Shown in pieces: positions 1,982 to 24,890 of a stretch of DNA of 64,000 bases. Position numbers and translations under genes: made by a program. How positions within the stretch are numbered: the stretch's first letter is position 1; each line of letters begins with the position of its first letter. The stretch spans positions 33,358-97,357 of the forward strand of contig JAHFFY010000001.1 of assembly GCA_023247705.1 (NCBI GenBank), given 5' to 3'. The DNA is from Candidatus Omnitrophota bacterium (GTDB lineage Bacteria > Omnitrophota > Gorgyraeia > Zapsychrales > JAHFFX01). A model generated the notes under the pieces. That model did no database searches. It was given only the letters and a program-made list of their open reading frames with translations, and was not told where the DNA came from.

Positions 1982-2533
1982 ATGTTGAAAAAAAAATTAT
2001 TGAAAAAGAAAAGTTGTATAAGACTCATTTTGTTACTCGTGATGCTGATTTCTGTATGCATCCGCTGCGGTTCTAACGGAAATTTTAAAGTTTATCAAAA
2101 TTCGAATTATCGTATAAAAATAAAATATCCTAAAAATTGGACATTACAAGAGAATCGGGATGGGGCGGTCGTTGTTTTTATGGCACCGCGGGAAGTGCCC
2201 GTTGATGTCTTTCAAGAAAACGTGAATATCGTGGTCCAGGATTTATCCGGTCAAGTCATCACCCTGCAGCAATACACCGCCACCGCGATCAATCAATTGA
2301 CCAGAGTTTTTAAAAGCGTCAAGATCCTTGATTCAGGCCCAACCTATTGGGGTGGAAAACCAGCGCATAAGGTGGAGTATATCATGCAAGCGAATGTCTC
2401 GTTGCGATTGATGCATATCTGGATGATCAAAGGGAAAAAAGCGTATCAATTTACCTTTGCCGCTGACGCCGACCGCTATGATGAATACATGGAAACCGTC
2501 CAGACCATGATCAATTCTTTTCAGGTGAATTGA
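1982..2533 (+). CDS. Exported or membrane-anchored protein of unknown function (PsbP/DcrB-like fold suspected)
   Basis: A K-rich N-terminus is followed by the hydrophobic segment LILLLVMLISVCI. The mature part resembles small bacterial PsbP/DcrB-type domains. Function was assigned by eye only. Confidence 0.4.
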   Translation: MLKKKLLKKKSCIRLILLLVMLISVCIRCGSNGNFKVYQNSNYRIKIKYPKNWTLQENRDGAVVVFMAPREVPVDVFQENVNIVVQDLSGQVITLQQYTATAINQLTRVFKSVKILDSGPTYWGGKPAHKVEYIMQANVSLRLMHIWMIKGKKAYQFTFAADADRYDEYMETVQTMINSFQVN

Positions 2534-3958: not shown

Positions 3959-4069
3959 CTTAATTGACAAACTTCCTTCTTTAAACAATTAAGAAAAACT
4001 CAATAGACTTCTCGCTATTCAACTTTGTCTTGGGCAAGGAAAAGACCACTAAAACGAAGAGGAGAACGC

Positions 4070-5929
4070 ATGAGTTTGTTTGATAAGAATATCAGTCAGG
4101 AAAAACGCGAATCGTTGGAGTTAGCGGAAGCTTCGCGCGAAAGCGAATGGCGATATCCCAGTTTTGCTTTAAAACTTTTTCACGGTGTTCTTGATTGGTC
4201 GTTGATCCATCCTTTTCCCATTCAGTCCGAACAAGACCGCAAAGAAGGCGACGAATACTTAGCGCAATTAAAGAAATTTTTAAAAGAAAATCTGGATCCC
4301 GATGAAGTCGATCGAACAGGAATAATCCCGCCCCAGGTGATCGATGGTCTCGCCAAGCTCAAGGCCTTTGCGATTAAAATTCCGAAAGAATACGGCGGTT
4401 TGGGTTTTAGTCAGACAAATTATTGCCGGGCGATCCATTTGGTTGCGAGTTTTTGCGGATCAACGGCTGTGTTGCTTTCGGCGCATCAAAGCATTGGCGT
4501 TCCGCAGCCTTTAAAACTTTTTGGAACCGAAGAACAAAAGAAAAAATATTTCCCGCGATTTGCCCAAGGGACGATCTCGGCATTCGCTTTGACCGAACCG
4601 GAGGCCGGTTCCGATCCCCGCCGGATGACGACCACTGCGACTCCGATCGAAGGCGGAAAACATTTTCTGCTCAATGGAGATAAATTATGGTGTACCAACG
4701 GATTGATTGCCGGTGTCATTGTGGTGATGGCTGTGACACCGCCCAAAATCATTAAAGGCAAAGAACAAAAGCAAATCACCGCTTTTATTGTTGAAACCAA
4801 TTCTCCGGGCTTTGAAATTGTTCATCGTTGTCAATTTCTGGGATTGCATGGCATCCAAAATGGACTGTTGCGTTTTAAAAATGTCAAAGTCCCTCGAGAG
4901 AATATTATTTTGGGTGAGGGAGAAGGATTGAAGTTGGCTTTAACCACGTTGAATACCGGCCGGTTGACTCTTCCGGCGGCCTCAACCGGAATCGCGAAAT
5001 GGTGCTTGCATGTAGCACGACAATGGTCCGTTAAACGAAAACAATGGGGCGCGGCCATCGGGGAACATGAGAGCATCGGATTGAAGCTCGGTTATATCGC
5101 CAGCCATACGTTTGCGATGGACGCGATGAGCTGGCTGACCTCCGCCATGGCGGATGATAAAAATAAAGATATTCGTCTGGAAGCCGCGATCGCTAAATAT
5201 TTTTGCACGCTGCATGCCTGGAAGATCGTGGATGAAACCATGCAGATCCGGGGAGGGCAGGGCTACGAACAATCGTCTTCACTGCGTTCCCGCGGGGCGG
5301 ATTATTATCCGGTTGAACGCGTTTTAAGAGACACCCGGATTAATCTTATCATTGAAGGGACATCGGAGATCATGCATCTTTTTATCGCTCGAGAAGCGCT
5401 GGATCCTCATTTGAGCCGATTTAAGAAACTCATTGATCCGCATGTACAACTCCCCGCGAGAATAAAAACATTTTTGTCCGTTGGCATGTATTATGTGCAA
5501 TGGTATTTGAAATTGCTTTTGCCTAATCACTTTTCTTCGAATCTCACCAGTTTGCCGGAGATTTTGGTGGAACACATGATCTATGTGCAGAATTCAAGTA
5601 AGCGTTTGGCCAGAACCACTTTTCATCAGATGATCAAATATCAGCAAAAACTCGAAGCGAAGCAAAGTGTCCTGAACCGCGTTGTTGAGATCGGAACGGA
5701 TTTGCTCGCAATGAGCGCAACCTGCTCCTATGCGAATCATCTCGTTAAAAATTCTAAACATACCCAAGGGACGATTGATTTGGCAGATTTATTCTGCCGG
5801 GAAGCAAGAAAACGGATTGAATTGAATTTTAAGGAAAATTGCCAGAATACCGACCGCAAAAATATTGCTGTTGCGCATCGGGTGATGGCCCAAGAAATCG
5901 AATGGCTCGAGAGCGATATTATAAAATAG
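4070..5929 (+). CDS. Acyl-CoA dehydrogenase, long form with C-terminal helical extension
   Basis: ACAD motifs FALTEPEAGSD, LWCTNG and IRGGQGY are present. GGAG at 4061-4064 lies 5 nt before ATG 4070. The TTG 4025 start in the track adds a basic leader with no SD. Confidence 0.8.
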   Translation: MSLFDKNISQEKRESLELAEASRESEWRYPSFALKLFHGVLDWSLIHPFPIQSEQDRKEGDEYLAQLKKFLKENLDPDEVDRTGIIPPQVIDGLAKLKAFAIKIPKEYGGLGFSQTNYCRAIHLVASFCGSTAVLLSAHQSIGVPQPLKLFGTEEQKKKYFPRFAQGTISAFALTEPEAGSDPRRMTTTATPIEGGKHFLLNGDKLWCTNGLIAGVIVVMAVTPPKIIKGKEQKQITAFIVETNSPGFEIVHRCQFLGLHGIQNGLLRFKNVKVPRENIILGEGEGLKLALTTLNTGRLTLPAASTGIAKWCLHVARQWSVKRKQWGAAIGEHESIGLKLGYIASHTFAMDAMSWLTSAMADDKNKDIRLEAAIAKYFCTLHAWKIVDETMQIRGGQGYEQSSSLRSRGADYYPVERVLRDTRINLIIEGTSEIMHLFIAREALDPHLSRFKKLIDPHVQLPARIKTFLSVGMYYVQWYLKLLLPNHFSSNLTSLPEILVEHMIYVQNSSKRLARTTFHQMIKYQQKLEAKQSVLNRVVEIGTDLLAMSATCSYANHLVKNSKHTQGTIDLADLFCREARKRIELNFKENCQNTDRKNIAVAHRVMAQEIEWLESDIIK

Positions 5930-5942
5930 AGCGGTATCTCCC

Positions 5943-8030
5943 ATGGAATCTCCGATAAACGGTCTCTCCAAGATCATCAATAAATTTTCGATCATCAAGC
6001 AAATTCCGATTTTTAATAATCTCAATTGGTTTCAATTGCACATGATCAGCCAAAAAAGTGTTCTTCAGGAATACCATAAGGGAGATTTTATTTATAAAGA
6101 GGAAAGTCCTGCGGATGGTTTTTATTGTTTGATCTCGGGAAGATTGCAGGCGTATAACATGAAATCATCCGGGCGCAAAGACAACCTGGAGCTTATTCTC
6201 CGCGGAACTCATTTCGGAATTACCTCGCTTTTTACCGGAGAGAATCATTCTTTAACCGTTGAAGCGGTGAACGATTCGATCATCCTGAAGATTACGCGGG
6301 ATGATTTTTTGTTGCTCTTGAAGATGATTCCCAAACTGGCCATCGAACTCAACCGGAGCTTATCCCAGCGTGTCAGAAATAAAAAACTCAACGCCCAATC
6401 CATTTTTAACAGTTCGATTATTTCCGTTTACAGTCCTGTCAAGGGGACCGGCAGTTCCACGTACGCGCTGAATCTCGCGATTAACCTTGAACGCGAAACC
6501 AAACGAAAGGTTATTTTAGTCAATATTAGTTCCAATCTTTCGGATGAACAGTCGTTGATTTTCAAGGTCCCGGACGCCTCGCCTCATTGGAAGATCCCGG
6601 GGATCAGGATTCAGGAGACGGTGGGCGATCATCAGAAAATTATCCAGAGCGTGATTAAAGGGCATCTTAATGTCGATCTGTTGCATGTTGTTTTTAACCC
6701 TACGAACAAAAATTTAGTCGACCTGATCAGCCAGTTTGTCAGTGCGTTGATCAACGATTATTATTATCTCGTTGTTGATCTTCCCAATAATATGGATGAT
6801 GTTGTCTTGCAGACATTGACTCAATCGGACTTGATCCACTTGATCACTCTAAACCGGATGGAAGATCTGAAGCTCACAAATCAGGTGATTCATGATCTGC
6901 AAACAAAGTTAAAAGACCGTTTTATTAAGGAAAACGTTCAAGTCATGATCAGCAGTTTAGATCGTTCGGAAAACCGTTTAGTCCATCACGAGATCGATAA
7001 CGTTTTAGATTTTAAGGTCTCAGACGTATTACCGTTTATTCCCCCTGAGGATTTGAGAAATCCAGTGATCACGGATGCGATCGCTGTCATCACTCCGGGA
7101 CTTGATAGTGAATATACCAAGACCTTGGCCAGAATTTCGCGGAAAATCGGAGGGATTTTAATCGGCTTAGTCTTGGGCGGTGGGGCGGCTTTAGGATTAG
7201 CTCACATCGGCGTTATCAAGGTCCTGGAGCGGGAAAATATCCCCATTGATATTGTGGTGGGAAGCAGCATGGGTGCATTAATTGCCGCTCTCTGGACGAT
7301 TGGCAATAATTCCGAACATCTAGAAATATTTGCGCGGGAATTTGAGAAAAAACAGAATGGATTGAAATTATTCGATCCTGTTTTTCCAAGGACTGGCTTT
7401 ATCGGTGGACGCCTGATCAAATTGTGGTTGAAAAAGCATCTCGGAGATAAGACGTTTTATGATACAAAAGTCTCTTTGAAAATCGTCAGCTATGATCTGA
7501 TCAGACGAGAGGAACAAATTTTGGACCAAGGCAGTTTAGTCGATGCGGTTAGGGAAAGCGTTGCGATCCCGGGTGTTATCGAACCTGTCTTTCGTGGTGG
7601 AAAGATGATTATTGATGGAGGAGTTTTGAATCCTTTGCCGACCAATGTATTGACCACCCTTGGAATTAAAAAAATCATTGCGATCAATGTCCTGCAATCA
7701 CCGGCGGATGTTTCGAAAGGCTATGATCTTCATCAGGAAAAAGCGCAGCTAGAACATCAAATTCCGTTCATGAAATCGCCGTTAGTCTTTTTGGGTGTTC
7801 GGATCTCTAAAGTTTTCAGCGCCAATATCCCGGATATTATTATCCGGACTCTTCAAGCCTCTGAATATGTCATCGCTGAGCAAAGCGCCAACCAGGCCGA
7901 TGTGCTTATTCATCCGAATCTGGTCGGCATTAACTGGTTTGAATTGTATCAGGTCGATCAGCTAATTCAAAGCGGAGAAGACGCGACGTTGCAAAAAATT
8001 GGAGAAATTAAGAGATTGATCCGGGAATAA
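5943..8030 (+). CDS. Three-module protein: cyclic-nucleotide-binding domain + degenerate ParA/MinD-like domain + patatin-like phospholipase
   Basis: The N-terminus has a CAP-effector-type cNMP domain (GDFIYKEESPADGFYCLISGRLQ..RGTHFG). The middle carries a ParA/MinD-like layout with a deviant P-loop (ISVYSPVKGTGSST) and a Walker-B-like YLVVDLP. The C-terminus is patatin-like (GGGAALG, GSSMG nucleophile elbow, DGG Asp). Confidence 0.75.
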   Translation: MESPINGLSKIINKFSIIKQIPIFNNLNWFQLHMISQKSVLQEYHKGDFIYKEESPADGFYCLISGRLQAYNMKSSGRKDNLELILRGTHFGITSLFTGENHSLTVEAVNDSIILKITRDDFLLLLKMIPKLAIELNRSLSQRVRNKKLNAQSIFNSSIISVYSPVKGTGSSTYALNLAINLERETKRKVILVNISSNLSDEQSLIFKVPDASPHWKIPGIRIQETVGDHQKIIQSVIKGHLNVDLLHVVFNPTNKNLVDLISQFVSALINDYYYLVVDLPNNMDDVVLQTLTQSDLIHLITLNRMEDLKLTNQVIHDLQTKLKDRFIKENVQVMISSLDRSENRLVHHEIDNVLDFKVSDVLPFIPPEDLRNPVITDAIAVITPGLDSEYTKTLARISRKIGGILIGLVLGGGAALGLAHIGVIKVLERENIPIDIVVGSSMGALIAALWTIGNNSEHLEIFAREFEKKQNGLKLFDPVFPRTGFIGGRLIKLWLKKHLGDKTFYDTKVSLKIVSYDLIRREEQILDQGSLVDAVRESVAIPGVIEPVFRGGKMIIDGGVLNPLPTNVLTTLGIKKIIAINVLQSPADVSKGYDLHQEKAQLEHQIPFMKSPLVFLGVRISKVFSANIPDIIIRTLQASEYVIAEQSANQADVLIHPNLVGINWFELYQVDQLIQSGEDATLQKIGEIKRLIRE

Positions 8031-8143: not shown

Positions 8144-8283
8144 ATCACCTCCTCGAGTTTTGCCTCAAATTCCTGTTCAATCTGAAAGATTTTTTGGAAT
8201 GATTCTGAACATGTGTATTCGGCCCGGGGCAAACGGCTTTGTAGGAGATGTGGTTTTTAGCTTACTCCAAGAGATCATGTTTT

Positions 8284-10359
8284 ATGTCAGGAACACCGCA
8301 AAAAATTCGAATCGGATCACGTTCCAGCGCTTTGGCCATCAAACAGGTTGAAGAGGTTTTGTATCTTTTCAAAAAAAGTGGGATCTATTTTGAATATGAA
8401 CTCAAGATATTTCAAACCCGCGGGGATCACGACAAACAGACTCCTCTCACCGCTAGCTCAATTGATAATTTTTTTACCGATACTCTTGATGAAGCCCTCC
8501 GGACCGAACAAATCGATCTTGCGGTGCACAGTGCGAAAGATGTTCCTCAGCGATTGCCGCCAGGATTGGATTTATTTGCATTAACCCCGTGTTTGGACGA
8601 AACAGACAGTCTCGTGGCCTCCCGAAAATTATCTGAACTTAAATCCGGATCGAAAATCGGTGCAAGCAGTTTAACTCGTCAGGAAGCGATCAAAGCCATT
8701 AATCCTCATGTTAAAGTGTTTGATATCCGTGGGACGATCGAAGAGCGGATGGATTTGGTCAAAAAAGAAACATTAGATGGAGTGATTATCGCGACGTGTG
8801 CTTTAAAACGTTTAAATTTAGAGCAAGACATCACGGAAATCATGCCCTGGGAGACAACCGCATTACAGGGACAATTAGCGATCGTTGGCCGATCAAGGGA
8901 TTTAAAATTAAAATTCATGTGTCATCCGCTGGATGTCCGTTCAAAGTATGGACGGGTTGTTTTGGTTGGTGCTGGTCCGGGAGACCCGGAACTCATCACC
9001 TTGAAGGCGATCAAGGCGTTAGAACAAGCCCAGTGTGTTTTTTATGATTACCTTGCTCATCCTGATTTATTGAAATATGCGCCCAACGCCGAAAAGATTT
9101 ATGTCGGTAAAAGAAAAGCCGAGCATTCGCTTTCCCAGGCGCAACTGTCCAGAATGTTACGCGAAAAAGCCGCGCAAGGCCAACAGGTCGTTCGATTGAA
9201 GGGCGGAGATCCTTTGATTTTTGGGCGTGGGGCGGATGAGATTCAATATTTAAGATCTTATCATATCCAGGTGTCGGTTGTGCCCGGCATCAGTTCAGCT
9301 ACAGGCATTCCATCGCTGTTAGGCATTCCTCTGACGGCGCGCGGCATTTCATCTTCAGTTGCTTTTATCAGCGGACATGAAGAGGATGAAAAAATTCTAC
9401 CTAACAGAATATTACAGATTCCAAAAGTTCAAACGATCGTATTTTTTATGGGATTGACAAAGTTAAAGATCGTTGTCGAGTCTTTACAGCAATCCGGATG
9501 GTCCAATGAAACACCGGTAATTATTATTTCTAGAGGAACAAGGCAAGATCAACAGATTGTTACCGGAACGATCAGCAATATTGAAGCGCGGTTATTATCC
9601 CATAAAATTGAGCCTCCGGCCCTGATTATAGTCGGAGAAACGATTGAATTTTATAATCAAAATAATTCTGCAGCCCCCAATATTCTGTATTTGGGGACCA
9701 AGCCGGAGAAATACGCGTTTTTGGGTCAGATCATTCATTTCCCTATGATGGATATTATTCCCACTGAATTCTCTCAACCACAGCGCGATCAGATTTTTTC
9801 CGATTTTAGTCGAAGCGAAGTCATTATTTTTACCAGCAGGTTTGCTGTGCAATATTTCGTCGCGTTGCTACAAGACCAAAAGGATCTTTTATCGAAGCTC
9901 AAGACCAAGATCATCTGTGCCGTGATCGGCCGGGAGACCGAGAAGGTTTTAAATGAGTTCGGTATCAAAGCCCGCTGTGTTCCTTCGATCGAAACCAGCC
10001 AGGGATTGTTTGAAGCTTTAAACCAACAGTTTGAACTCAAAGGAAAGAAAATTATCCTGCCCCGTTCCTCATTGCCAAACCCGTATCTCAAACAAAAATT
10101 AACCGAAAACGGAGCACAGGTGATCGAGGTTACAATTTATAAAAACAAAAAGCGAACAACAATTTTCCCGAACCTCCAAGACCAATCCTTTGCCCAAGTG
10201 AGCCATATTCTTGTTTCGAGTCCGTCAACGGTTAATTATTTTCTCGAGATTTATCATCAGATCCCTCAAAATTGGCAAATCATCAGTAAAGGACCAGTGA
10301 CGACTCAGGCGTTATCAAACGTCGGTTATGCGACAACAAAAATCATTGAATTAATGTAG
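8284..10359 (+). CDS. Triple fusion: porphobilinogen-deaminase-like domains 1-2 + uroporphyrinogen-III C-methyltransferase (CobA/SUMT) + uroporphyrinogen-III synthase (HemD)
   Basis: The HemC-like part carries IRIGSRSS, TRGD, AVHSAKDVP, SSLTRQ and ALKRL. It runs directly into the SUMT motifs VVLVGAGPGDPELITLKA and GGDP.IFGRG. A HemD-like C-terminal region of about 230 aa follows. ATG 8284 (MSGTPQK) is preferred over ATG 8248. Confidence 0.8.
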   Translation: MSGTPQKIRIGSRSSALAIKQVEEVLYLFKKSGIYFEYELKIFQTRGDHDKQTPLTASSIDNFFTDTLDEALRTEQIDLAVHSAKDVPQRLPPGLDLFALTPCLDETDSLVASRKLSELKSGSKIGASSLTRQEAIKAINPHVKVFDIRGTIEERMDLVKKETLDGVIIATCALKRLNLEQDITEIMPWETTALQGQLAIVGRSRDLKLKFMCHPLDVRSKYGRVVLVGAGPGDPELITLKAIKALEQAQCVFYDYLAHPDLLKYAPNAEKIYVGKRKAEHSLSQAQLSRMLREKAAQGQQVVRLKGGDPLIFGRGADEIQYLRSYHIQVSVVPGISSATGIPSLLGIPLTARGISSSVAFISGHEEDEKILPNRILQIPKVQTIVFFMGLTKLKIVVESLQQSGWSNETPVIIISRGTRQDQQIVTGTISNIEARLLSHKIEPPALIIVGETIEFYNQNNSAAPNILYLGTKPEKYAFLGQIIHFPMMDIIPTEFSQPQRDQIFSDFSRSEVIIFTSRFAVQYFVALLQDQKDLLSKLKTKIICAVIGRETEKVLNEFGIKARCVPSIETSQGLFEALNQQFELKGKKIILPRSSLPNPYLKQKLTENGAQVIEVTIYKNKKRTTIFPNLQDQSFAQVSHILVSSPSTVNYFLEIYHQIPQNWQIISKGPVTTQALSNVGYATTKIIELM

Positions 10360-10402: not shown

Positions 10403-11359
10403 ATGAATCGTTCTCGACGGCTACGCAAAAATGAAATTATTCGCAATCTGGTCAGGGAAACACGATTAGCGAAAGATCAGCTCATTCAGCCTTTTTTTGT
10501 CTTGGAAGGAAGAAACAGGAAGATTGAGATATCTTCCATGCCCGGGATTTATCGCTATTCAGGAGATTTACTTCTGAAGGCAATTCAGGATTATCAAAAA
10601 TCAGGAGGGAAGGCGGGAATTTTGTTCGGAATTCCCGGGAAGAAAGATTTGCAAGGAAGTCAGGCCTATGCGGACAACGGGATCATTCAAAAAACTCTAA
10701 AACTGATCAAGAAAGAATTTCCAGATTTTTTTGTTATCACTGATGTTTGTTTGTGTGGATATACTACCCACGGACATTGTGGACTTGTGGAAGGCCGACA
10801 GATCCTCAACGATAAAACGCTGCTGCTTTTGACAAAAGTAGCGGTGTCCCATGCGCAAGCTGGAAGTGATATGGTTGCTCCATCGGATATGATGGATTTT
10901 CGGGTTCAGCATATTCGTGCGGGCTTGGATAAGAATGGATTTGAGGATACTCCAATCCTGTCTTATGCCGTCAAGTATTCGTCCGCTTTTTACGGCCCGT
11001 TTCGCGATGCGGTTGATTCAACCCCGCAGTTCGCAGACCGCAAAACTTATCAAATGGATTGTGCTAATCAGCGTGAAGCGATCAAAGAAGCCCGGCAGGA
11101 TGTCATGGAAGGTGCTGATCTGATCATGGTGAAGCCGGCGTTACCGTATTTAGATATCATAACCTTGCTTCGGCATCAGCTCACCGTGCCTATTGTCGGA
11201 TTTAGCGTTAGCGGAGAATACGCGATGATTAAAGCGGCGGCTCGAGCCAAGTGGATTGATGAAAAATCTTCAGTTCTGGAAAGTTTAATTGCGATTAAAC
11301 GCGCAGGTGCGGACATAATTATCTCCTATTACGCGCATGAAGTTTTAACATGGATATAA
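10403..11359 (+). CDS. hemB: Porphobilinogen synthase (delta-aminolevulinate dehydratase)
   Basis: Full-length ALAD-like sequence with the zinc-type Cys cluster DVCLCGYTTHGHCG and the Schiff-base lysine context DLIMVKPALPYLD. Confidence 0.9.
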   Translation: MNRSRRLRKNEIIRNLVRETRLAKDQLIQPFFVLEGRNRKIEISSMPGIYRYSGDLLLKAIQDYQKSGGKAGILFGIPGKKDLQGSQAYADNGIIQKTLKLIKKEFPDFFVITDVCLCGYTTHGHCGLVEGRQILNDKTLLLLTKVAVSHAQAGSDMVAPSDMMDFRVQHIRAGLDKNGFEDTPILSYAVKYSSAFYGPFRDAVDSTPQFADRKTYQMDCANQREAIKEARQDVMEGADLIMVKPALPYLDIITLLRHQLTVPIVGFSVSGEYAMIKAAARAKWIDEKSSVLESLIAIKRAGADIIISYYAHEVLTWI

Positions 11360-12633
11360 AAAGATCGAAGCAGATATTTAAGGAAGCCCAGACCGTCATG
11401 GTAGGGGGTGTTAATAGCCCGGTGCGATCTTTTCGGTTGGTGGGAGGACATCCGTTGGTGATGAAATCGGGTCAAGGAAGCCAGTTATTCGATGAAGACC
11501 AAAATGCTTATACGGACTATTGTTTATCCTGGGGCTCTTTGATTCTAGGGCACAGCCACAAAGATATTGTCCAAATCCTGAAAAAAGCGATTGTCCATGG
11601 GACAAGTTTTGGAACCACGACCTCGGCTGAACTTGAGATCGCTAAATTTATTACCAAAAATATTCCATCAATTGAACGCGTTCGGTTTGTTAATTCCGGA
11701 ACTGAAGCAACGATGAGTGCAATACGCGTGGCCAGGGGGTTCACAAAAAAAGAAAAGATCATCAAATTTGATGGCTGCTATCATGGCCATTTTGATGATT
11801 TGTTGACAAAAGCGGGATCCGGCGTTGCCAATTTATCGGAATCCTCGAGTCTTGGGATTACGAAGAACCATATCCAAAATACCTTCAGCCTGCCATTCAA
11901 TGATAGCCAAACGTTTGAAAAAATTGTGACCCAGCATAAAGCTGAAATTGCCTGCGTGATCATTGAACCTGTTGCTGGCAACATGGGGGTTATTCCAGCT
12001 AAAGAGGAGTTTTTGAAAACAATCCGGCAAATCACTCAAAAAAATAATATTGTTCTGATCTTCGATGAAATCATGACGGGTTTCCGCAGTCATATCGGTG
12101 GTGTTCAATCAGAGTTAGGTGTCATTCCTGATATGACCTGTTTGGGAAAAATCATCGGAGGCGGATTCCCCGTTGGCGCGTATGGTGGTAAAAGGGAAAT
12201 CATGTCCTACCTTGCGCCGTTAGGTGGCGTGTATCAGGCTGGAACGTTTGCCGGAAATCCTGTCGTAATGCAAGTTGGTCTGGCGACTTTAAAAAATTTA
12301 ACGCCATCTTTTTACAAAAAACTGAATGCCTTTGCGGATCAATTTGCCCAGAAGTTGAATGCTTTTTTTCAAAAGAATCAAATTGAAGCGTTTTTATCGC
12401 ACTATAAATCCATGATGAGTTTACGATTCAGAAAAAAGCCGGTTGCGAATTACGAAGACGCTGTCGCAGCCTCTTCACAAGCAAAGTATTCTAAAGTTTT
12501 CCACCAGTTATTACGCCATCAAATCTATTGGCCTCCAGCTGATTTGGAAGCATTTTTTTTGTCCGGATCTCATACGCAAGCAGATTTAAATGTGTTATAT
12601 CGATGGATATGTGATTATTTCAGTAAAAATTAA
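11350..12633 (+). CDS. hemL: Glutamate-1-semialdehyde 2,1-aminomutase
   Basis: Class-III aminotransferase layout with VNSGTEATM, FDEIMTGFR and the PLP-lysine context CLGKIIGGG. It overlaps the hemB stop by 10 nt. Confidence 0.9.
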   Translation: MDIKRSKQIFKEAQTVMVGGVNSPVRSFRLVGGHPLVMKSGQGSQLFDEDQNAYTDYCLSWGSLILGHSHKDIVQILKKAIVHGTSFGTTTSAELEIAKFITKNIPSIERVRFVNSGTEATMSAIRVARGFTKKEKIIKFDGCYHGHFDDLLTKAGSGVANLSESSSLGITKNHIQNTFSLPFNDSQTFEKIVTQHKAEIACVIIEPVAGNMGVIPAKEEFLKTIRQITQKNNIVLIFDEIMTGFRSHIGGVQSELGVIPDMTCLGKIIGGGFPVGAYGGKREIMSYLAPLGGVYQAGTFAGNPVVMQVGLATLKNLTPSFYKKLNAFADQFAQKLNAFFQKNQIEAFLSHYKSMMSLRFRKKPVANYEDAVAASSQAKYSKVFHQLLRHQIYWPPADLEAFFLSGSHTQADLNVLYRWICDYFSKN

Positions 12634-12683
12634 TTTAGAATGCTAAACATTTTAAGCGTTTGCAAAAGAAAGGAGATGCCGTA

Positions 12684-13079
12684 ATGTACAAGTTCTCTAG
12701 AAATTTATTTTTTGCGTTTTTAGTCGGGGTCATTTCTTTTTCTGCTTCAGGGTGCCTGCCTTTAGTCGTTGGCGCTGCAGCCGGAGCGGGAAGCGTTATT
12801 TGGGCCAAGGGGACCATTCAACAAGATTTCAATAGACCACTTAATAGCGTCTATAAAGCAACCAAGGTGGCCCTGAAGAAACTGGATGTGCCTATTATCG
12901 TTGATAAGAAAGATAACTTGACTGCTCATCTGGAATCGCAATTTGCAGATGGGAAGAAGATCAAAATCGATATCGAATATGTTTCAACCTACACGTCCAA
13001 GATCTCGATCCGGGTTGGCACCCTTGGCGATGAGAATAAATCCAGGGAAATTTTGGAAATGGTCATAAAATATCTCTAA
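12684..13079 (+). CDS. Small lipoprotein of unknown function (DUF3568-like)
   Basis: Signal peptide with lipobox SASGC. AAAGGAGA lies 8 nt upstream of ATG 12684; the TTG 12660 in the track is less likely. Confidence 0.5.
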   Translation: MYKFSRNLFFAFLVGVISFSASGCLPLVVGAAAGAGSVIWAKGTIQQDFNRPLNSVYKATKVALKKLDVPIIVDKKDNLTAHLESQFADGKKIKIDIEYVSTYTSKISIRVGTLGDENKSREILEMVIKYL

Positions 13080-13186: not shown

Positions 13187-13543
13187 ATGGAAAATACTGA
13201 TTCATTTTCAACCCGTCCCTGGGGTAATTATCATAAGCTTTTTCAAGAGCCCGGAGTCTGGGTTAAGCGGGTGGAAGTCAACCCCGGAGCCCGTTTGAGT
13301 TTGCAGAAACATATCAAGCGTTCGGAGAAATGGATTGTGGTGAATGGTTTTGGCTTAGCTGTAGTCAATAATCTGGAAATCAAGGTTAAACCAGGTTCAG
13401 TCATTGATGTTCCTTTGGGGGCCGTCCATCGCATCGGAAACACGGGGCAAGAGAAATTAATCTTCATCGAGGTCGCTTGCGGTAGTTATTTAGCAGAGGA
13501 TGATATCATCCGCCTACAAGACGATTACGATCGTAAATCCTAG
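13187..13543 (+). CDS. Cupin-domain protein resembling the C-terminal cupin of type II phosphomannose isomerase
   Basis: RPWGNY..., SLQKH..RSEKW.V..G and VHRIGN resemble a cupin metal-site pattern. The protein is 118 aa. Confidence 0.55.
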   Translation: MENTDSFSTRPWGNYHKLFQEPGVWVKRVEVNPGARLSLQKHIKRSEKWIVVNGFGLAVVNNLEIKVKPGSVIDVPLGAVHRIGNTGQEKLIFIEVACGSYLAEDDIIRLQDDYDRKS

Positions 13544-13650: not shown

Positions 13651-15024
13651 TTAGATATATCGGCGTAAATGAGAGGGAAGGATTTTTAACGAATGTCGGT
13701 ATTTGCTGACTGTTCTACGGGCAAGAACTAATCCTTTTTCCTGAAAGAGACGCTGAATATCTTGGTCTGAGAGGGGTGTATTTTTATCTTCGTTGTCCAC
13801 CATATCTTTAATTTCCTCGCGAATACTCCTGCTCGAAATATTATTCTGTTGTTCATCAACCAGGCCGTTTGAGAAAAAGAACTTGATTGGGACCACCCCT
13901 TGAGGAGTTTCAATATATTTATTTTGAATGGCTCGGCATATGGTCGATTCATTCCGGCCGATCGCCAGTGCGATCTCTTTCATGTTCATGGGCGGAATGG
14001 CACTGTTTGTTCCTTCGAAATACTCTTTTTGTTTGGTGAGGATAAACTGCGCGATTTCCCGAATAGTTGAACCGCGCTGTTCTATACTTTTGATGAAATG
14101 GAGGGCATCTCGCAGTTTTCCCTTAAGAAATTCCTTTTCTTCATTGGTTAAATTGTTTTTACTCATAATATTTTTATAGAATGAATTAATACGCAAATGG
14201 GGGATCTGCCGCATATTGATATTAATCTGATAGCCATGAACAGGATCATTTTTGATGATTACATCTGGAACAATCTCAATGTTGCTGGATAATGGACGAT
14301 AATTTCTGGCTGGTTTTGGTTCCAATAATGCGATAATTTTGATTGATTCTTTGAGTTTGTCAATGGATATCCCTAATGCGCGAGCGATTGGCGTGTATTT
14401 TTTTCGACCTAAATCTTCTAAATATAAGTCTACGATTTTATAGACAGCGGTTTCCTTTGCGTAATTTTTGTTTCGTAACTGACAAAGTAGGCATTCTTTG
14501 AGTGTAAAAGAGGCTATGCCGATCGGTTCAAAGTTTTGAATGATTCTCCTGACTTCTTCAACTGGTTCTGTGGAGGGCAGGGCAAGGACTTGTGCTATTT
14601 CATCACAAGATATTTTGAGATAGCCATCTTCATCAAGGTTTCCAATAATCAATTCGGCAATTTCGAGTTTGAGCGAATCAGATATTTCAATGCGAGCTTG
14701 TTGCAGGAGTATATCTTCCAGAGGAAGCTCTCTGGTGATTGGTTTTTCTTCAAATTCATCTTCATCCGTTGGATGGTTGTCGTATTTATTTATTTTGTTC
14801 AATTCCGTATGCTGAAGGATTTTTTGATTCATTTGGGATTCGAGGTGTGCAACAGAAGCCTCAAGGTTTTCTTCCGCCAGCTCAAGAAGCGGGTTATTTT
14901 CAAGTTCCTGCTCAATTGTTAGGCGTAGTTCAGTCAAGGGTAGCATAAGAATCGAGATAGATTGCTGCATGAGGGGAGACAGAACTGGTTTTAGGGTCTG
15001 TAAAGGTGTTAATTTGAATTTCAT
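13651..15024 (-). CDS. rpoN: RNA polymerase sigma-54 factor
   Basis: L/Q-rich region I (MKFKLTPLQTLKPVLSPLMQQSISIL), an acidic region II, and a C-terminal HTH plus RpoN box ARRTVSKYR. The start is ambiguous between ATG 15024 and ATG 15042. Confidence 0.9.
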   Translation of the reverse strand: MKFKLTPLQTLKPVLSPLMQQSISILMLPLTELRLTIEQELENNPLLELAEENLEASVAHLESQMNQKILQHTELNKINKYDNHPTDEDEFEEKPITRELPLEDILLQQARIEISDSLKLEIAELIIGNLDEDGYLKISCDEIAQVLALPSTEPVEEVRRIIQNFEPIGIASFTLKECLLCQLRNKNYAKETAVYKIVDLYLEDLGRKKYTPIARALGISIDKLKESIKIIALLEPKPARNYRPLSSNIEIVPDVIIKNDPVHGYQININMRQIPHLRINSFYKNIMSKNNLTNEEKEFLKGKLRDALHFIKSIEQRGSTIREIAQFILTKQKEYFEGTNSAIPPMNMKEIALAIGRNESTICRAIQNKYIETPQGVVPIKFFFSNGLVDEQQNNISSRSIREEIKDMVDNEDKNTPLSDQDIQRLFQEKGLVLARRTVSKYRHSLKILPSHLRRYI

Positions 15025-15323
15025 ATGCAGAAAGTATACCATATGATTTTAAAATAAGGCAAATTCTAATTTTTTTTATCATATTTCCATTTTATCAATT
15101 TTAGCGGTGATGATAATAATTTTAAACATTTGTTTAACTCTTTATTTTTCTTGGCTTTTCTGTGCTTGTCCTACCTTGTCTAGGACAAATACGTCCATTC
15201 TTCTAAACACATACCTAAAGTGTGTCTGTAAGTGTTTTTATCAAGCGCAAAAATTTATTTCATAACTTATTGAAGATAATTAGGTTATAGATTTAAAAAA
15301 TATTCTCAACATCGATACAAAGA

Positions 15324-15648: not shown

Positions 15649-16488
15649 ATGAAACACAATATAAAAACATTTAATATTCTGATTTTAGCTTTAATGGCCA
15701 TTCTATTGGACTTTAACGTTGTTCACGCCGAAAATTATGCTGGCGGGAATCCAGAGATCAAAGCTAAAGAACAAACTCAAAAATTAACAGAAACCAAGAA
15801 TACTGATACTACTAAAGAAGCTCAAGAAGGGATGGTAGTCCAGGAACCTAGCGCAGAAGATATTCTTCAGCAATCACAATCTTTATCATCGGAATCTGAT
15901 CCGAGTCGATATACGTTAGGAGTCAATGACGTGATCGAAATATCTGTATTGCGCCATCCAGAAGTCACAGGGCAATATGTGATTAATAGTGAAGGCAAGA
16001 TCCAATACGAATTTGTCGGAGATATTAAAATTCAAGGAAAGACAAAGGATGAGGTCAAGGCGATCATAACCGAAAGTTTATCAAAATATATCGTATCTCC
16101 GGATGTAACAGTTAAAATCAGCGGATATAACAGTAAAGTCGTCTATGTCATTGGAGAAGTTGGAAATCCGGGAAAGATTTATATGCGAGGAGATACGATT
16201 ACCATTCATGAAGCTCTCCTGCAAGCGGGCTTACCGCTTTTAACCGCTTCTACGCGAAAAAGCAGGCTCATAACACCTTCAAAAGAAGGAAAGGCTTCTC
16301 AAAAATTCGTTAATGTGGAAGCTTTGCTGTATGAAGGTGACTTAAGAGAAAATTTAGTGATGAAACCTGGAGATACTCTTTATATCCCAGCAACTGTTAT
16401 GGCGAAGGCTATGAGAGTTATTTCTCCGGTCGCTCAACCAGTCGGAGCAGCCGCTACTACTGGAAGAACCGTTACGACAGGTTTTTAA
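15649..16488 (+). CDS. Polysaccharide export protein (Wza/EpsE-like; Poly_export + SLBB)
   Basis: Signal peptide, then YTLGVNDVIEISV...INSEGKIQYEFVGDIKIQGKT..E and a GEVGNPG soluble-ligand-binding beta-grasp region. Confidence 0.8.
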   Translation: MKHNIKTFNILILALMAILLDFNVVHAENYAGGNPEIKAKEQTQKLTETKNTDTTKEAQEGMVVQEPSAEDILQQSQSLSSESDPSRYTLGVNDVIEISVLRHPEVTGQYVINSEGKIQYEFVGDIKIQGKTKDEVKAIITESLSKYIVSPDVTVKISGYNSKVVYVIGEVGNPGKIYMRGDTITIHEALLQAGLPLLTASTRKSRLITPSKEGKASQKFVNVEALLYEGDLRENLVMKPGDTLYIPATVMAKAMRVISPVAQPVGAAATTGRTVTTGF

Positions 16489-16536
16489 TTTTATCATAAT
16501 AACCGTTATTCTCGGATAGGCAAGAAAGGAAATAGC

Positions 16537-17841
16537 ATGGATGATTTAAATACTAGTTCGCTGTCAGTCATGAGTTATCTAAAAATATTTTTTAGAAGAA
16601 AATGGCTGTTTATTATTCCCGTGTATGCCGGTTTGATTTTCGGTGTTTGTGCAGGGATAGTTCTTCCGAAAAAATATTTATCATCCACAATTATTTTGGT
16701 AGAGGAAGGGAAATCGGATAATCCTTTGTTTAATAATTTAGCTGTTTCAACGACCGTCACGCAACGTATGACAGCGATTCAAGAGTCCATGCTCGGATGG
16801 AATAGTCTGGTCAAACTCGTTAAACGGTTAAATATGGATTCCTTGGTGAAAACGCCGCAAGATTTGGAAAAGCTGATTTTAGGCATAAGAAAGGACATAA
16901 TTATCAAATTACGTGATAAGAATATTATTGATCTATCTTACATTGGTACGGAGCCGGAACAGACTCAAGCCGTCGTTAAGAATATCACAGAAATTTTTAT
17001 CGAAAGAAACGTTGAAGTCCAAAGCAAGGAAACCTCTGATGCCATCACTTTTATAGAAGGGCAGTTGCATCTTTATCAGGGGAAGATTAAATCAGCAGAA
17101 ATTGCGCAACTTCAAGATCAATTGAATACATTATTATTAGATTCAACCGAACAACACCCGCATGTCAAGCAACTCAGAGAACAGATTGAAAACAAAAAAC
17201 AAGAATTAGCCAAAGAGAACCTGGTATATACGGAAAATGTTTCTCTGGATACAAGCACTACAAATCCTATTATTGATGAAATCAAAAAAGCTTTAGGTAA
17301 TATCGAAACAGCGAGCAATGATGGTCCCGATGCCAACGGGATCAACGATCCAGGAACCAAGGATATTTATAAAGTTATGTTAATTGATAAACTTGACAAT
17401 GTGATCGCCCGTGATGTTAATGTTAACACGAACATTTATAATATGCTTTTACAGCGACTGGAAACTGCGAAAATTACCCAGCGCCTGCAGTCGTCAAAAG
17501 AAGGTACGAAATATACAATTTTAGATCCGCCGCGGGTTCCGCTAGATCCAGTACAACCTAATAAAGTTTTAGTGATCATGATGGGAACCTTGCTTGGCGC
17601 GATCATCGGAGGGGCATTGGTTTTTGCGATCGAGTTCCTTGATAAATCGTTTCTTGATGTTGAGGAAGCCAAAGAATATCTCGGAACACCTCTTTTAGGA
17701 GCGATTTCAAAGATTGTTACAGTGGAAAGTTTGCAGCAAGACAAAGTTAAACAAGGATGGATTGCCGGATTAACCGCAGTGGCCGGAGTCATCATCGTCA
17801 TTGTCACAGTGCTGGTATCGAAATTTATTTCAAACAGTTAA
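16537..17841 (+). CDS. Polysaccharide chain-length determinant (Wzz/GumC/EpsF-like)
   Basis: An N-terminal TM, a long coiled-coil periplasmic region, the P-rich PPRVPLDPVQPNK motif and a C-terminal TM. Confidence 0.8.
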   Translation: MDDLNTSSLSVMSYLKIFFRRKWLFIIPVYAGLIFGVCAGIVLPKKYLSSTIILVEEGKSDNPLFNNLAVSTTVTQRMTAIQESMLGWNSLVKLVKRLNMDSLVKTPQDLEKLILGIRKDIIIKLRDKNIIDLSYIGTEPEQTQAVVKNITEIFIERNVEVQSKETSDAITFIEGQLHLYQGKIKSAEIAQLQDQLNTLLLDSTEQHPHVKQLREQIENKKQELAKENLVYTENVSLDTSTTNPIIDEIKKALGNIETASNDGPDANGINDPGTKDIYKVMLIDKLDNVIARDVNVNTNIYNMLLQRLETAKITQRLQSSKEGTKYTILDPPRVPLDPVQPNKVLVIMMGTLLGAIIGGALVFAIEFLDKSFLDVEEAKEYLGTPLLGAISKIVTVESLQQDKVKQGWIAGLTAVAGVIIVIVTVLVSKFISNS

Positions 17842-17865
17842 CTATTCAAGAAAGAAGACGTCATT

Positions 17866-18750
17866 ATGTATCTTCAATTTTACGGATTTCAGGAACCACC
17901 ATTTAATATTACCCCAAATTCGCGTTTCTTTTTTTCCAGCACAAAGCACACGGAAGCCTTGAGTACTCTTGTTTATGCGATTTCGGAACGCAAAGGGTTC
18001 GTTGTGATAACCGGGGATATCGGTTCCGGCAAAACAACCGTATGCCGGGCGCTGGTCAACAAGCTGGATTCAAGAACCCAAATTGCCTTGATTACAAACA
18101 CGCTGATGAGCGGGAGAGATTTGATTACGACCATTCTAGAAGATTTAGAAGTCGATTTTACCTCCGGATCCAAGGCCAAACTTCTTTCTCAATTGAATTC
18201 ATATCTGATCGAACAATTGCGAAGCAACAATAACGTCGTTTTAATCATTGATGAAGCCCAGAATTTAACACCTTCCGTGCTAGAAGAGGTCCGCTTGTTA
18301 TCCAATTTAGAAACTGAAAATGAGAAATTGATACAAATTATTTTTCTTGGGCAACCTGAGCTTAAGAAAAAATTAGCGTTAAGTAAATTAGAGCAGCTCA
18401 GACAGCGTATTGCGGTCTTTTATCACCTTTATCCATTAACACAAAAAGAAACTCATGAATATGTGCTCCATCGGTTGAAAGTCGCCAGTGGAAGTGATCG
18501 GAATTATTTGACTCCGGAGGCCTTGGAACTGGTCTATCAGTTTTCCAAAGGGATTCCGCGATTAGTTAATCAAATTTGTGATAGCGCGTTTTTAACCGGG
18601 TATATCAACGAATCCAAAATAATCGATGCGACGATTTTGAAAGAAGTCATTGCTGAATCTCCGATGACGTTAATCGGAGATGGCACGAAGAAGGATATCA
18701 ATGTCTCGTCTTTAGATGACGATCTGCCCAAGGCATGGCTACGCGGATAA
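17866..18750 (+). CDS. ExeA/GspA-like AAA ATPase (PEP-CTERM-locus secretion ATPase type)
   Basis: The N-terminus YGF.E.PF is typical of ExeA-like proteins. Walker A is GDIGSGKTT and Walker B is VLIIDEAQNL. Confidence 0.75.
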   Translation: MYLQFYGFQEPPFNITPNSRFFFSSTKHTEALSTLVYAISERKGFVVITGDIGSGKTTVCRALVNKLDSRTQIALITNTLMSGRDLITTILEDLEVDFTSGSKAKLLSQLNSYLIEQLRSNNNVVLIIDEAQNLTPSVLEEVRLLSNLETENEKLIQIIFLGQPELKKKLALSKLEQLRQRIAVFYHLYPLTQKETHEYVLHRLKVASGSDRNYLTPEALELVYQFSKGIPRLVNQICDSAFLTGYINESKIIDATILKEVIAESPMTLIGDGTKKDINVSSLDDDLPKAWLRG

Positions 18751-18805
18751 TCAACGTTTCTAGAAATGGAAAAGTATCTCAGTGATCTAGGGAGGATTTT
18801 AAGTT

Positions 18806-19522
18806 ATGAGCAAAGTCTTGAAAGCACAAAAAGAATTAGGCGAGGGAAGAAAGATCAAATTCAGTCTGTTGTCGTTGCCCCACGCTCACGATGATTTAAA
18901 TCATGGCGCTTCTTCAATGGCCACAGAAAACGAAGGGCTAGAATCTCCCGAGTCGACCCAATCCCAGCCATCTGCTAAAAACCATTCCAAAGAACGCAAT
19001 CATCTGGAATTTTCTGGAGAAAAGAAAAGATCCAATTTTAAGCATATGATGCCGGTTATTTTTTTGGTTGCAGTTTTTGGATTCTCCTTGATGATTTTTA
19101 GTTTGAAGATCCTGGAGGAATTAAAATCGTTAGAAACGGCATCCGCAGATATTCATAAGAATTTTCTTTCGCAAAATGCCAAATTGATCGAGTTGGAGCA
19201 TTCTTGGGAGGAGTTCAGAATGAAATCACTGAATGATATCACTCAGATCATCAATGACCAAGAGGATTTTATGCAAACCGCAAAAACATCACAAACCGCT
19301 TTATTTAAAGTCTCCAACAATGTGGCAGGTTTGAACTCTACGATCATGAACATGGAGAATAATTTACAGAAGAATCAAGAACGGCTTAATGAACTTTATT
19401 CAAGTCATTTAACCTTACAGACGATGGTGAGTGACATGAATGAGAGTGTACAGCAGATCCAAATGAAATTGGATACTAATCCTACTGAGGGAGTAAGAGG
19501 AAAAGAAAGTTCTGTCCAATAG
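18806..19522 (+). CDS. Single-pass membrane coiled-coil protein, unknown function
   Basis: A polar N-terminus, one TM (MMPVIFLVAVFGFSLMIFSL) and a C-terminal heptad-rich region. No family was recognised. Confidence 0.45.
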   Translation: MSKVLKAQKELGEGRKIKFSLLSLPHAHDDLNHGASSMATENEGLESPESTQSQPSAKNHSKERNHLEFSGEKKRSNFKHMMPVIFLVAVFGFSLMIFSLKILEELKSLETASADIHKNFLSQNAKLIELEHSWEEFRMKSLNDITQIINDQEDFMQTAKTSQTALFKVSNNVAGLNSTIMNMENNLQKNQERLNELYSSHLTLQTMVSDMNESVQQIQMKLDTNPTEGVRGKESSVQ

Positions 19523-19553
19523 ACAGTCATCTTAAGAAAGGGCAAAGACGAAC

Positions 19554-20339
19554 ATGGGAAAAATCACGAGTGCATTGAAAAAAGCCGCGGATGAACGGTT
19601 CCAAAGAATAGATAAGATCAATCGGATCAAAGAGCAAGATCGTTTAATTATTAAAAAAATGGGGTCTTCCAGCATTGATCCGCGATTAATCACTTATTTC
19701 GATCCCAAGGCACTGATTACGGAACAATATAAAATCTTGAGGACCAATTTTCTTTCCATCAATAAAGGCCGCCCCCCGAAAATCGTCGTGGTGACAAGTG
19801 CCTTGCATTCAGAAGGGAAGACAATTACTGCACTCAATTTAGCCATTGCTTTGGCGCAAACGACCAATAAACCAAGAATTCTGTTGATTGACGCCGATTT
19901 GCGCCGTGGCCGTATCGCTAAGTATCTCGGAGTTGACCAGAATTCAGGCTTAAGCGATCTTTTGAGCGCTAGAGCCTCGTTGGATCAAGTTTTATTCAGT
20001 ATTGATCTTGAGAATTTAAGTTTTATTGCGCCGGGATCTCCTCCGGAAAATCCCTCAGAGCTTCTTTCATCTGAAAATATGAAAACTTTACTGAATGAAG
20101 TCAAACACCAATTTGATTTTGTTTTGATTGATACTCCCCCCATTATTGCGGTGACTGATTCGGGAGTTTTAGGTTCTATGGTTGACGGTGTCCTTATGGT
20201 TGTGCAAGCTGGCCGAACCCAGCGCGGGATCATCAATCGGGCCACTGAACTTCTCGAGCAAGCTCACGCGAAATTGATAGGCCATGTGCTAACAAATATC
20301 GAATATCATCTTCCAGAATATATCTATCGGTATTTGTAA
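19554..20339 (+). CDS. BY-type protein tyrosine kinase (CpsD/CapB/EpsG-like)
   Basis: Walker A is SALHSEGKT, Walker A' is LLIDADLRR and Walker B is FVLIDTPP. The C-terminal tail is Tyr-rich (YHLPEYIYRYL). Confidence 0.8.
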   Translation: MGKITSALKKAADERFQRIDKINRIKEQDRLIIKKMGSSSIDPRLITYFDPKALITEQYKILRTNFLSINKGRPPKIVVVTSALHSEGKTITALNLAIALAQTTNKPRILLIDADLRRGRIAKYLGVDQNSGLSDLLSARASLDQVLFSIDLENLSFIAPGSPPENPSELLSSENMKTLLNEVKHQFDFVLIDTPPIIAVTDSGVLGSMVDGVLMVVQAGRTQRGIINRATELLEQAHAKLIGHVLTNIEYHLPEYIYRYL

Positions 20340-20403
20340 CAAAATTATATTTAACATATCGGAATTTATTACGAATTCATTTTAACGATCATCAAGAGGA
20401 GAG

Positions 20404-21381: not shown

Positions 21382-21493
21382 TGGGATTTTACAGTTTTGT
21401 GTAGCAATATTTTCTCCAGAGAATATTGCTGCGAAGCAAAAGAAACCAGTCCGATTGCTTTCGTGAAGGAGAATAATTTAATTCCTTGAAACC

Positions 21494-23730: not shown

Positions 23731-23750
23731 CCCGGCTGGGCAAAGAACCG

Positions 23751-24851: not shown

Positions 24852-24890
24852 TCGCTCTGATTAAACAGCTTTAGAATAGGAAGGGAGAAT

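Follow-up and report, generated by a model that had tools for sequence, protein, structure and literature searches.

A short-type HemC without domain 3 fused to CobA and HemD in Omnitrophota, a candidate trifunctional enzyme of early tetrapyrrole synthesis

The 64-kb stretch of Candidatus Omnitrophota DNA analyzed here (contig JAHFFY010000001.1; hereafter the window, meaning the whole stretch) carries an uninterrupted plus-strand reading frame at 8284-10359 for a protein of 691 amino acids (aa), in which domains 1 and 2 of HemC (hydroxymethylbilane synthase, HMBS), at aa 8-215, are followed by the uroporphyrinogen-III C-methyltransferase CobA (SUMT) and the uroporphyrinogen-III synthase HemD (Table 1). 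An ATG at 8248 is also a possible start codon, but the homologues in a 45-sequence alignment begin at the methionine of position 8284. Three Pfam domains cover the protein, namely PF01379 (Porphobil_deam; aa 8-209, E 1.7e-49, 168.6 bits), PF00590 (TP_methylase; aa 224-433, E 6.8e-50), and PF02602 (HEM4; aa 481-681, E 1.6e-36, 126 bits vs. a cut-off of 27.5), while PF03900 (Porphobil_deamC) was not detected in the 691 aa even at E<=1. The TIGR00212 hemC profile is likewise covered only over positions 1-216 of 293 (174.9 bits), and phmmer alignments of the fusion protein to HMBS chains in the PDB end at chain residue ~218. A first reading of the DNA without database searches (the original prediction) had assigned the first ~215 residues to HemC domains 1-2, had noted the absence of domain 3 with its cofactor cysteine, and had described a direct passage into the SUMT motif; all three statements were borne out, with the motif VVLVGAGPGDPELIT beginning at aa 225, ~10 residues beyond the end of HemC domain 1. 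A domain 3 of ~90 aa cannot be hidden elsewhere in the protein, since the spacers amount to only ~10 aa between HemC and SUMT and ~25 aa between CobA and HemD. In reviews, HMBS is a three-domain enzyme that grows its pyrrole chain on a dipyrromethane held by a conserved domain-3 cysteine (PMC13564367; PMC7959689).

The middle module scores well above the cut-offs of the CobA/SUMT models TIGR01469 (262.4 bits vs. 185) and NF004790 (271 bits vs. 198), and its GAGPGD and RLKGGDP motifs are invariant in the 45-member family. HemD families are highly divergent, and the C-terminal module matches the NCBIfam HemD equivalogs below their cut-offs (best 106 bits vs. 275). Constraint is stronger on the short HemC module (HemC') than on the HemD module, as 34/208 vs. 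24/205 columns are invariant in this family. An AlphaFold2 model built from the 45-sequence alignment has a mean predicted local distance difference test (pLDDT) score of 87.9 and a predicted template-modelling score of 0.64; residues 221-230 at the junction are modelled with confidence, and the lid loop (aa 51-60) is the sole low-confidence stretch of the N-terminal module. Foldseek searches of the PDB matched this module to HMBS structures (4htg, 1pda, 4mlq) over 220-230 columns with a root-mean-square deviation of 1.9-2.5 Å, in domains 1-2 only, and the middle module to SUMT 1s4d and NirE 2ybq (target TM 0.76-0.79) as well as to CysG.

Table 1. Features of the fusion gene and the two hem genes downstream of it (positions in the window).
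Feature	Position	Strand	Basis and remarks
Whole reading frame: short HemC module, CobA (SUMT), HemD (UroS)	8284..10359	+	691 aa; Pfam/NCBIfam; AlphaFold2
Short HemC module, HMBS domains 1+2 only	8284..8949	+	aa 1-222; PF01379, phmmer, Foldseek
DNFFTD, clade signature (D/N)FFT, in place of the canonical lid GKGLF(T/V)KE	8464..8481	+	clade alignment
Predicted catalytic Asp codon, D86 (E. coli D84), inside HSAKD	8539..8541	+	family and clade alignments
T131 codon (E. coli R131 / human R149 position)	8674..8676	+	alignments; residue role PMC7959689
HemC'/CobA junction DVRSKYGRVVLVG	8932..8970	+	D217, G223, L227, G229 invariant; pLDDT 93
Uroporphyrinogen-III C-methyltransferase (CobA/SUMT) module	8950..9663	+	aa 223-460; TIGR01469, NF004790, Foldseek
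Uroporphyrinogen-III synthase (HemD) module	9679..10347	+	aa 466-688; PF02602
hemB (porphobilinogen synthase)	10403..11359	+	PF00490 ALAD, 472 bits; supplies the HemC module with its substrate
hemL-like class-III aminotransferase (glutamate-1-semialdehyde aminomutase position)	11350..12633	+	PF00202, 235 bits; overlaps hemB by 10 nt

A search through 5.8 billion proteins yielded over 120 protein clusters at 48-58% identity, all of which have this set of three Pfam domains and lack PF03900. These homologues were drawn from assemblies of NCBI, JGI, ENA, and Logan, and those that carry a name belong to metagenome-assembled genomes (MAGs) of Candidatus Omnitrophota or "Omnitrophica WOR_2". The original prediction had named a frameshift or assembly join at ~8920-8950 as something that would undo it. 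Such an event is ruled out because the four junction residues D217, G223, L227, and G229 are invariant in the 45 aligned homologues, which derive from independent assemblies, and no domain-3 remnant occurs in any frame; the fusion gene is real and conserved. A full-length hemC directly precedes cobA-hemD in other phyla, so a frameshift, mis-assembly, or recent deletion could in principle have fused a truncated hemC to cobA-hemD in one contig. However, with the architecture common to all these clusters, the junction kept, and the module grouping with an ancient short clade rather than with the canonical HemC of Omnitrophota (see below), an artefact of this kind is extremely improbable.

The original prediction has to be revised in that the missing domain is no peculiarity of this fusion. 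An exhaustive HMMER search with aa 1-222 against 1.84 billion representatives of 50%-identity clusters gave 171 matches at E<=1e-30. Among the best 150 of these representatives, 148 lack domain 3 according to a custom hidden Markov model (HMM; see below) and only P0232 and P0260 possess it; the 148 short forms end where the window module ends (aa 222, ~E. coli residue 220). The window module is thus one architecture of a large domain-3-less clade and not a one-off truncation. Other members are stand-alone proteins (212-246 aa) or are fused as HemC'-HemD (~400-465 aa), HemC'-CobA, HemC'-CobA-HemD (~640-690 aa), GluTR(HemA)-HemC', and SirC-HemA-HemC', GluTR being glutamyl-tRNA reductase. The clade spans Chlamydiae, Planctomycetota, Elusimicrobiota, Omnitrophota, and one Spirochaetota-labelled MAG, with the named members from the clade search falling in Elusimicrobiota and Phycisphaerae. 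Relatives of the stand-alone representative P0244 are proteins of 216-249 aa with PF01379 only, from Parachlamydiaceae/Chlamydiales, along with HemC'-HemD fusions of 420-429 aa; on two long chlamydial-type contigs a hemC' of 220-225 aa and hemD share 4 nt, and the gene order is radA-hemC'-hemD-sodA. Both NCBI and JGI annotate stand-alone members as hydroxymethylbilane synthase.

In a neighbour-joining tree of 127 modules, short and canonical HemCs form two perfectly separated groups (26/30 bootstraps), and by this tree the short clade is monophyletic with respect to the 34 canonical HemCs included, which came mainly from loci adjoining cobA-hemD and comprise the Omnitrophota canonical HemC of locus L071. 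Sequence identity of the window module falls from 53% with its Omnitrophota relatives to 37-39% with short forms of the chlamydial and HemA-fused kinds and to 33% with canonical HemCs. The phylum Omnitrophota is therefore split between short and canonical HemC. Because the window module sits with the short clade and apart from the L071 protein, we rejected the idea that the fusion arose when an Omnitrophota hemC upstream of cobA-hemD recently lost its domain 3.

Several unusual arrangements were encountered in these searches. The reading frame at L023 7904-10102 (+) of "bacterium nzgw509" is a divergent triple fusion (29% identity) that retains a DDFFTDTLD motif; the S-adenosylmethionine-binding loop of its CobA module is degenerate (GAGTGR for GAGPGD), and the methyltransferase may be inactive. 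In the Spirochaetota-labelled MAG, L017 9986-11935 (+) encodes a domain-3-less HemC'-CobA-HemD protein outside Omnitrophota (36% identity) with isoleucine at the R131 position and the motif ATCALIRLG; the occurrence could reflect horizontal transfer or a mis-binned contig. The 841-aa protein P0148 joins a short HemC and the first ~17 residues of a CobA-like motif to a sirohaem-binding nitrite/sulfite-reductase domain (NIR_SIR) and a C-terminal TusA; either the fusion with an enzyme that depends on sirohaem is genuine, or the protein stems from a chimeric assembly. Finally, the frames L076 3809-5869 (687 aa) and L051 1127-3175 (683 aa), both read stop to stop, place extra sequence N-terminal to a canonical, domain-3-bearing HemC, and N-terminal fusions to HemC may extend beyond the short clade.

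The custom domain-3 HMM was built from 26 canonical HemCs of fetched loci and an E. coli HemC sequence whose numbering agrees with the published R11, D84, R131, R132, R149, R155, and C242 and which scores 374 bits on TIGR00212. With filters off, it gave no match at E<=10 in a six-frame translation of the window or in ~0.43 Mb around 27 other short-module loci (20 GTDB triple-fusion loci, five further Omnitrophota, and two Chlamydiae; neighbourhoods up to +/-10 kb), and no PF03900 gene is annotated in the neighbourhoods of short-module loci. The suggestion in the original prediction that domain 3 is supplied in trans thus finds no support in the ~0.5 Mb searched. Its statement that hemA and a stand-alone hemC are absent from the window was correct, as a second HemC module, GluTR, and SirC were all sought there and not found. 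Canonical HemC (PF01379 with PF03900) is common in other Omnitrophota MAGs; the named fusions belong to "Omnitrophica WOR_2" and the named canonical HemCs to other Omnitrophica bins, a pattern that suggests a lineage split between HemC types and not their co-occurrence. No contig with both a canonical HemC and the fusion was found among the Omnitrophota records of both types, which is a weak test. HemCs of Opitutia, Puniceicoccaceae, and Oscillospiraceae that gave weak HMM matches were considered as cases of a reduced domain 3 and rejected, as alignment shows their Cys loop to be kept and the proteins to be canonical.

The active-site residues of human HMBS were mapped to the short modules via E. 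coli numbering and compared across the 45 family members, 215 short-clade modules, and 34 canonical HemCs. In the human enzyme, the substrate site is formed by R26, S28, Q34, S96, D99, R167, N169, and R173 (Sato 2021, PMC7959689), pyrrole site 1, occupied by cofactor ring c2, by K98, R150, A189, S96, R195, and G218, and pyrrole site 2, occupied by ring c1, by K98, S147, R149, R150, R173, T145, and S146 (PMC7959689). The translocated cofactor meets the Cys261 loop, S262, domain-3 arginines, and the lid lysines, and Q19 and D84 (E. coli numbering) are assigned to deamination and catalysis (PMC7959689). In E. coli numbering, R11, S13, Q19, S81, K83, D84, R132, R149, R155, A170, R176, and G199 are invariant or at least 97% conserved in both the family and the clade. 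The original prediction had picked out AVHSAKDVP (aa 80-88) as the context of the catalytic Asp and had noted the substrate-binding arginines; D86 indeed corresponds to E. coli D84 and is present in 45/45 family members and 99% of the 215 clade modules, Q19 is likewise conserved at ~99%, and most of the binding arginines are kept. The exception among the substrate-site residues is N151 (human N169), which is mostly threonine in the short clade.

The differences are concentrated elsewhere. At the lid, G60 is replaced by D (81%) or N (17%) and L61 by F (92%), with T at position 63 in 97% of short-clade modules, whereas the canonical set has G60 in 94% and K59 in 79%; the lid lysines are exchanged for acidic or neutral residues, K59 for D/T and K64 for R/D/K. 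Other changes relative to the 34 canonical HemCs are T154 to E/Q, G173 to A, and the loss of R101, whose human equivalent R116 presumably bridges to domain 3. The clade signature of a (D/N)FFT lid, A82, T151, E154, and A173 is present in the window as DNFFTD, HSAKD, RGTIEER, and ATCALKRL. Position 131 is threonine in the window and never arginine in the 45 family members (L31, I3, V3, and M2 being commonest), while arginine occupies it in 100% of canonical HemCs and 44% of the short clade; R132 is invariant, and the loss of R131 is specific to the Omnitrophota subclade. The original prediction was right that an arginine is replaced in SSLTRQ (aa 128-133; R131 to T131) but had counted it as a substrate residue, and it instead contacts the c1 ring of the cofactor in pyrrole site 2 (PMC7959689). 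With substrate-site and site-1 residues conserved and the lid lysines, R101, and R131 altered, the putative catalytic and condensing cleft is kept and the features tied to a tethered, translocating cofactor or to domain 3 are gone.

A replacement for the cofactor cysteine was also sought. No invariant Cys column exists anywhere in the 691-aa family (45 homologues), and the commonest cysteine, C172 at the position of E. coli A172, is carried by 33/45 family members and by 48% of the clade modules. Cysteine is missing from six of the 215 short modules, including those of two triple fusions (P0097, on an 820-kb contig, and P0012), and four whole proteins contain none at all (the stand-alone P0151, P0226, and P0254, and the HemC'-HemD protein P0176), although every catalytic and binding residue is kept. 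Because some members contain no Cys, the short clade as a whole cannot rely on a cofactor bound in cis through a thioether. C172, which lies beside the cleft residue A170, was rejected as the replacement cofactor Cys on account of these frequencies and the Cys-free members, as was a Cys from the fused CobA (C251, 40/45) or HemD, which is not invariant and comes from partners that vary across the clade. C164 is found in 12/45 family members, and 9 of the 12 members without C172 have C164 instead while two have neither, a pattern (alignment A1) that looks like compensatory Cys placement in domain 2.

The order fusion-hemB-hemL is kept in most relatives, L084 being without hemB at that position, and DUF3568, cupin, and rpoN genes usually come next after hemL. 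Other phyla, with Veillonella, Bryobacterales, Verrucomicrobiota, and Chloroflexota among the examples, have a separate hemC of full length, complete with domain 3 and the Cys loop, directly before a cobA-hemD fusion, so that the short module of the fusion holds the operon position of hemC. Short modules were always found with tetrapyrrole enzymes, either fused to them or, in Chlamydiae, overlapping or adjoining hemD. In one relative (locus L082), a gene for a 155-aa NAD_binding_7 protein (9537-10004, +), a precorrin-2 dehydrogenase of the SirC/Met8 type, overlaps the start of the triple fusion and suggests that the pathway there leads on to sirohaem or sirohydrochlorin; in the window this position holds no more than an AT-rich gap of 250 bp.

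On balance, we favor the view that the protein is a genuine trifunctional enzyme of early tetrapyrrole synthesis, whose N-terminal module is a short-type HMBS active without a Cys-linked dipyrromethane. Of the three alternatives offered by the original prediction (a non-canonical deaminase, a binding or channelling module, or domain 3 in trans), the first is the best supported. We infer that the short module is catalytically active, works without a tether, and serves as the sole HMBS of the organism. Porphobilinogen (PBG) from the co-transcribed HemB would enter the conserved substrate site (window R13, S15, Q21, S83, D86, R149, and R155), would be deaminated with the assistance of D86 and Q21, and would then condense with a pyrrole sitting in sites 1 and 2 (window K85, R132, S128/S129, A170, R176, and G196). 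As this acceptor pyrrole would be held non-covalently, the chain would grow without a covalent tether to the enzyme. The fused HemD would then cyclise the linear tetrapyrrole to uroporphyrinogen III, which the fused CobA would methylate twice to precorrin-2, toward sirohaem, B12, or Ahb-type haem; the whole protein would thereby carry PBG to precorrin-2 through three consecutive steps in one polypeptide. It may be speculated that capture by a tightly coupled HemD replaces the chain-length control exerted by the domain-3 cavity, and the first product might be aminomethylbilane and not hydroxymethylbilane, or an azafulvene handed on without release. Clade members in general probably work in a way not yet described. 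That the short clade is a large and ancient HMBS group which makes the linear tetrapyrrole without covalent dipyrromethane, starting from a non-covalent primer and passing the product straight to an adjacent or fused HemD, is a realistic possibility that we put forward tentatively.

There are several points that weigh against an active, tether-less enzyme. Variants of E. coli C242 and R131 are inactive or unable to assemble the cofactor, and activity without these residues would therefore need a different mechanism. Every characterized HMBS uses the Cys-linked dipyrromethane (PMC13564367; PMC7959689), and our literature search found no biochemical data for any short-clade member. A hemA gene is not seen near the fusion and is absent from the 64-kb window. 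The canonical HemC of other Omnitrophota MAGs leaves room for a second hemC elsewhere in the genome, and D84 and the arginines would also stay conserved in a module that only binds pyrroles.

There are two other explanations. The deaminase could work with a covalent dipyrromethane tether provided in trans by a domain-3-like or Cys-bearing partner, or a separate canonical hemC could do the main work with the short module as an auxiliary. Most of pyrrole sites 1 and 2, where canonical enzymes bind the cofactor, is retained, and the search for domain 3 reached across the window and at most 10 kb to either side of other short-module loci. However, that search returned nothing at its permissive threshold, the fused partners (HemA, SirC, CobA, HemD, or none) offer no common cis donor of a Cys, the residues lost (R131, R101, and the lid lysines) are those of the cofactor and domain-3 interface, and the distribution of named fusions and canonical HemCs over different Omnitrophica bins suggests a lineage split; we consider this explanation unlikely. 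Alternatively, the N-terminal module could be inert as a polymerase and bind, channel, or regulate, for instance by holding hydroxymethylbilane for HemD or by adjusting CobA or HemA flux in response to sensed PBG. The HMBS fold is a two-lobed cleft like that of type-II periplasmic binding proteins, the module matches HMBS domains 1-2 in fold and is always attached or adjacent to other tetrapyrrole enzymes, and the known mechanism could not operate once the cofactor domain is lost. Such a role would nonetheless leave the step from PBG to hydroxymethylbilane without an enzyme in operons that encode the flanking hemB and hemD steps, and it sits poorly with the near-invariance of Q19 and D84, with the existence of stand-alone members, and with a clade that has taken over the canonical operon position of hemC. 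As the catalytic residues are invariant and the module sits in hem operons, a purely binding function is less likely, and we regard it as improbable.

Compared with canonical HMBS/HemC (E. coli 1PDA, human HMBS, and B. megaterium 4MLQ), the window module shares the fold of domains 1-2, the catalytic Asp, the substrate-site and site-1 residues, and the hem-operon position, but has no PF03900 and no equivalent of Cys242, has R131 replaced, and carries a (D/N)FFT lid with charge reversal together with the clade-level changes N151 to T, T154 to E, G173 to A, and loss of R101. Lacking domain 3, the cofactor Cys, and R131, it is a homologue of HMBS that is best placed in a separate short-HemC clade rather than among canonical HemCs. 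It has the same end point, the (D/N)FFT motif, and the PF01379-only composition of the "Chlamydia-type" short HemCs (216-249 aa), which are hemD-coupled and are described by NF002202/PRK01066, a 241-position HMBS equivalog presumably built from Chlamydiaceae. NF002202 is the best HemC-type model for the window module at 180.7 bits, against 120-146 bits for canonical HemCs; this is below the cut-off of 251, and equivalog membership was not assigned. The chlamydial proteins (~37% identical) keep R131 (SSERRE), whereas the window module lacks it and is fused to CobA-HemD. The CobA -> HemD order is that of the bifunctional CobA/HemD fusions of Clostridia, Veillonella, and Desulfovibrio, one of which has been characterized in Desulfovibrio vulgaris; these relatives (28-36% identity) lie downstream of a separate hemC, while in the window a short-type hemC is added as a third, N-terminal module. 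CysG of S. enterica (1PJQ) is also multifunctional and belongs to the same branch, and its SUMT module is homologous (NF007922 positions 214-449 of 450, among the top Foldseek matches), but it fuses SUMT to the dehydrogenase/chelatase of later steps and not to the HemC and HemD of earlier ones, and NF007922 scores 280 bits, below its cut-off of 400.

The short clade is already known to databases, with a short NCBIfam model and stand-alone members named HMBS, and so are CobA-HemD fusions; a short HemC ahead of CobA-HemD is a new architecture of known parts. In the literature on domain-3-less HemC, Chlamydia hemC, and HemC-CobA-HemD fusions we found no paper that remarks on the absence of the domain or accounts for it, and a 2026 review describes only the Cys-linked HMBS mechanism (PMC13564367). 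A study of coral chlamydiae scores the haem pathway of Simkaniaceae as complete from KEGG annotation without mentioning hemC (PMC11070183), a hint that pathway scoring treats short HemCs as functional, provided that Simkaniaceae have the short form. If the short clade is active, the tether is no chemical necessity, and processivity and chain length would be controlled in another way, perhaps via coupling to HemD. The completeness of haem, sirohaem, and B12 pathways would then have to be judged anew in Chlamydiae, other bacteria of the Planctomycetes-Verrucomicrobia-Chlamydiae (PVC) group, and candidate phyla, and compact one-polypeptide enzymes from PBG to precorrin-2 would be available for pathway engineering. 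If the clade is inactive, many genomes scored as hemC-positive are in fact without that step.

The genes surrounding the hem cluster were also annotated. Downstream of hemL are a DUF3568 lipoprotein-like gene (12660-13079, +) and a small cupin gene of the mannose-6-phosphate isomerase C-terminal type (13187-13543, +); both follow hemL in most relatives and may be co-transcribed with the hem genes. Beyond rpoN (13651-15042, minus strand), a same-strand polysaccharide export and biosynthesis cluster is annotated at 15649-25676 (+) and probably continues to ~58 kb, with Poly_export/SLBB, Wzz/GNVR, an AAA_22 ATPase, a ParA-like ATPase of the tyrosine-kinase type, an epimerase, a polysaccharide deacetylase, GNAT, and an ABC-2 permease. 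In L083 and L085 a syntenic cluster likewise lies downstream of rpoN. Upstream of the fusion, 5943-8030 (+) encodes a 695-aa protein with an N-terminal cyclic-nucleotide-binding domain, a C-terminal patatin-like phospholipase, and a ParA/AAA_31-like middle region that is weakly seen in a relative. It is preceded by a gene for a long acyl-CoA dehydrogenase (4025-5929, +), and synteny of these two genes with the hem fusion extends to several Omnitrophota (L081, L082, and L085). Further upstream, 1982-2533 (+) encodes a 183-aa PsbP-family protein (PF01789, E 4.7e-12) in a presumably non-photosynthetic Omnitrophota genome.

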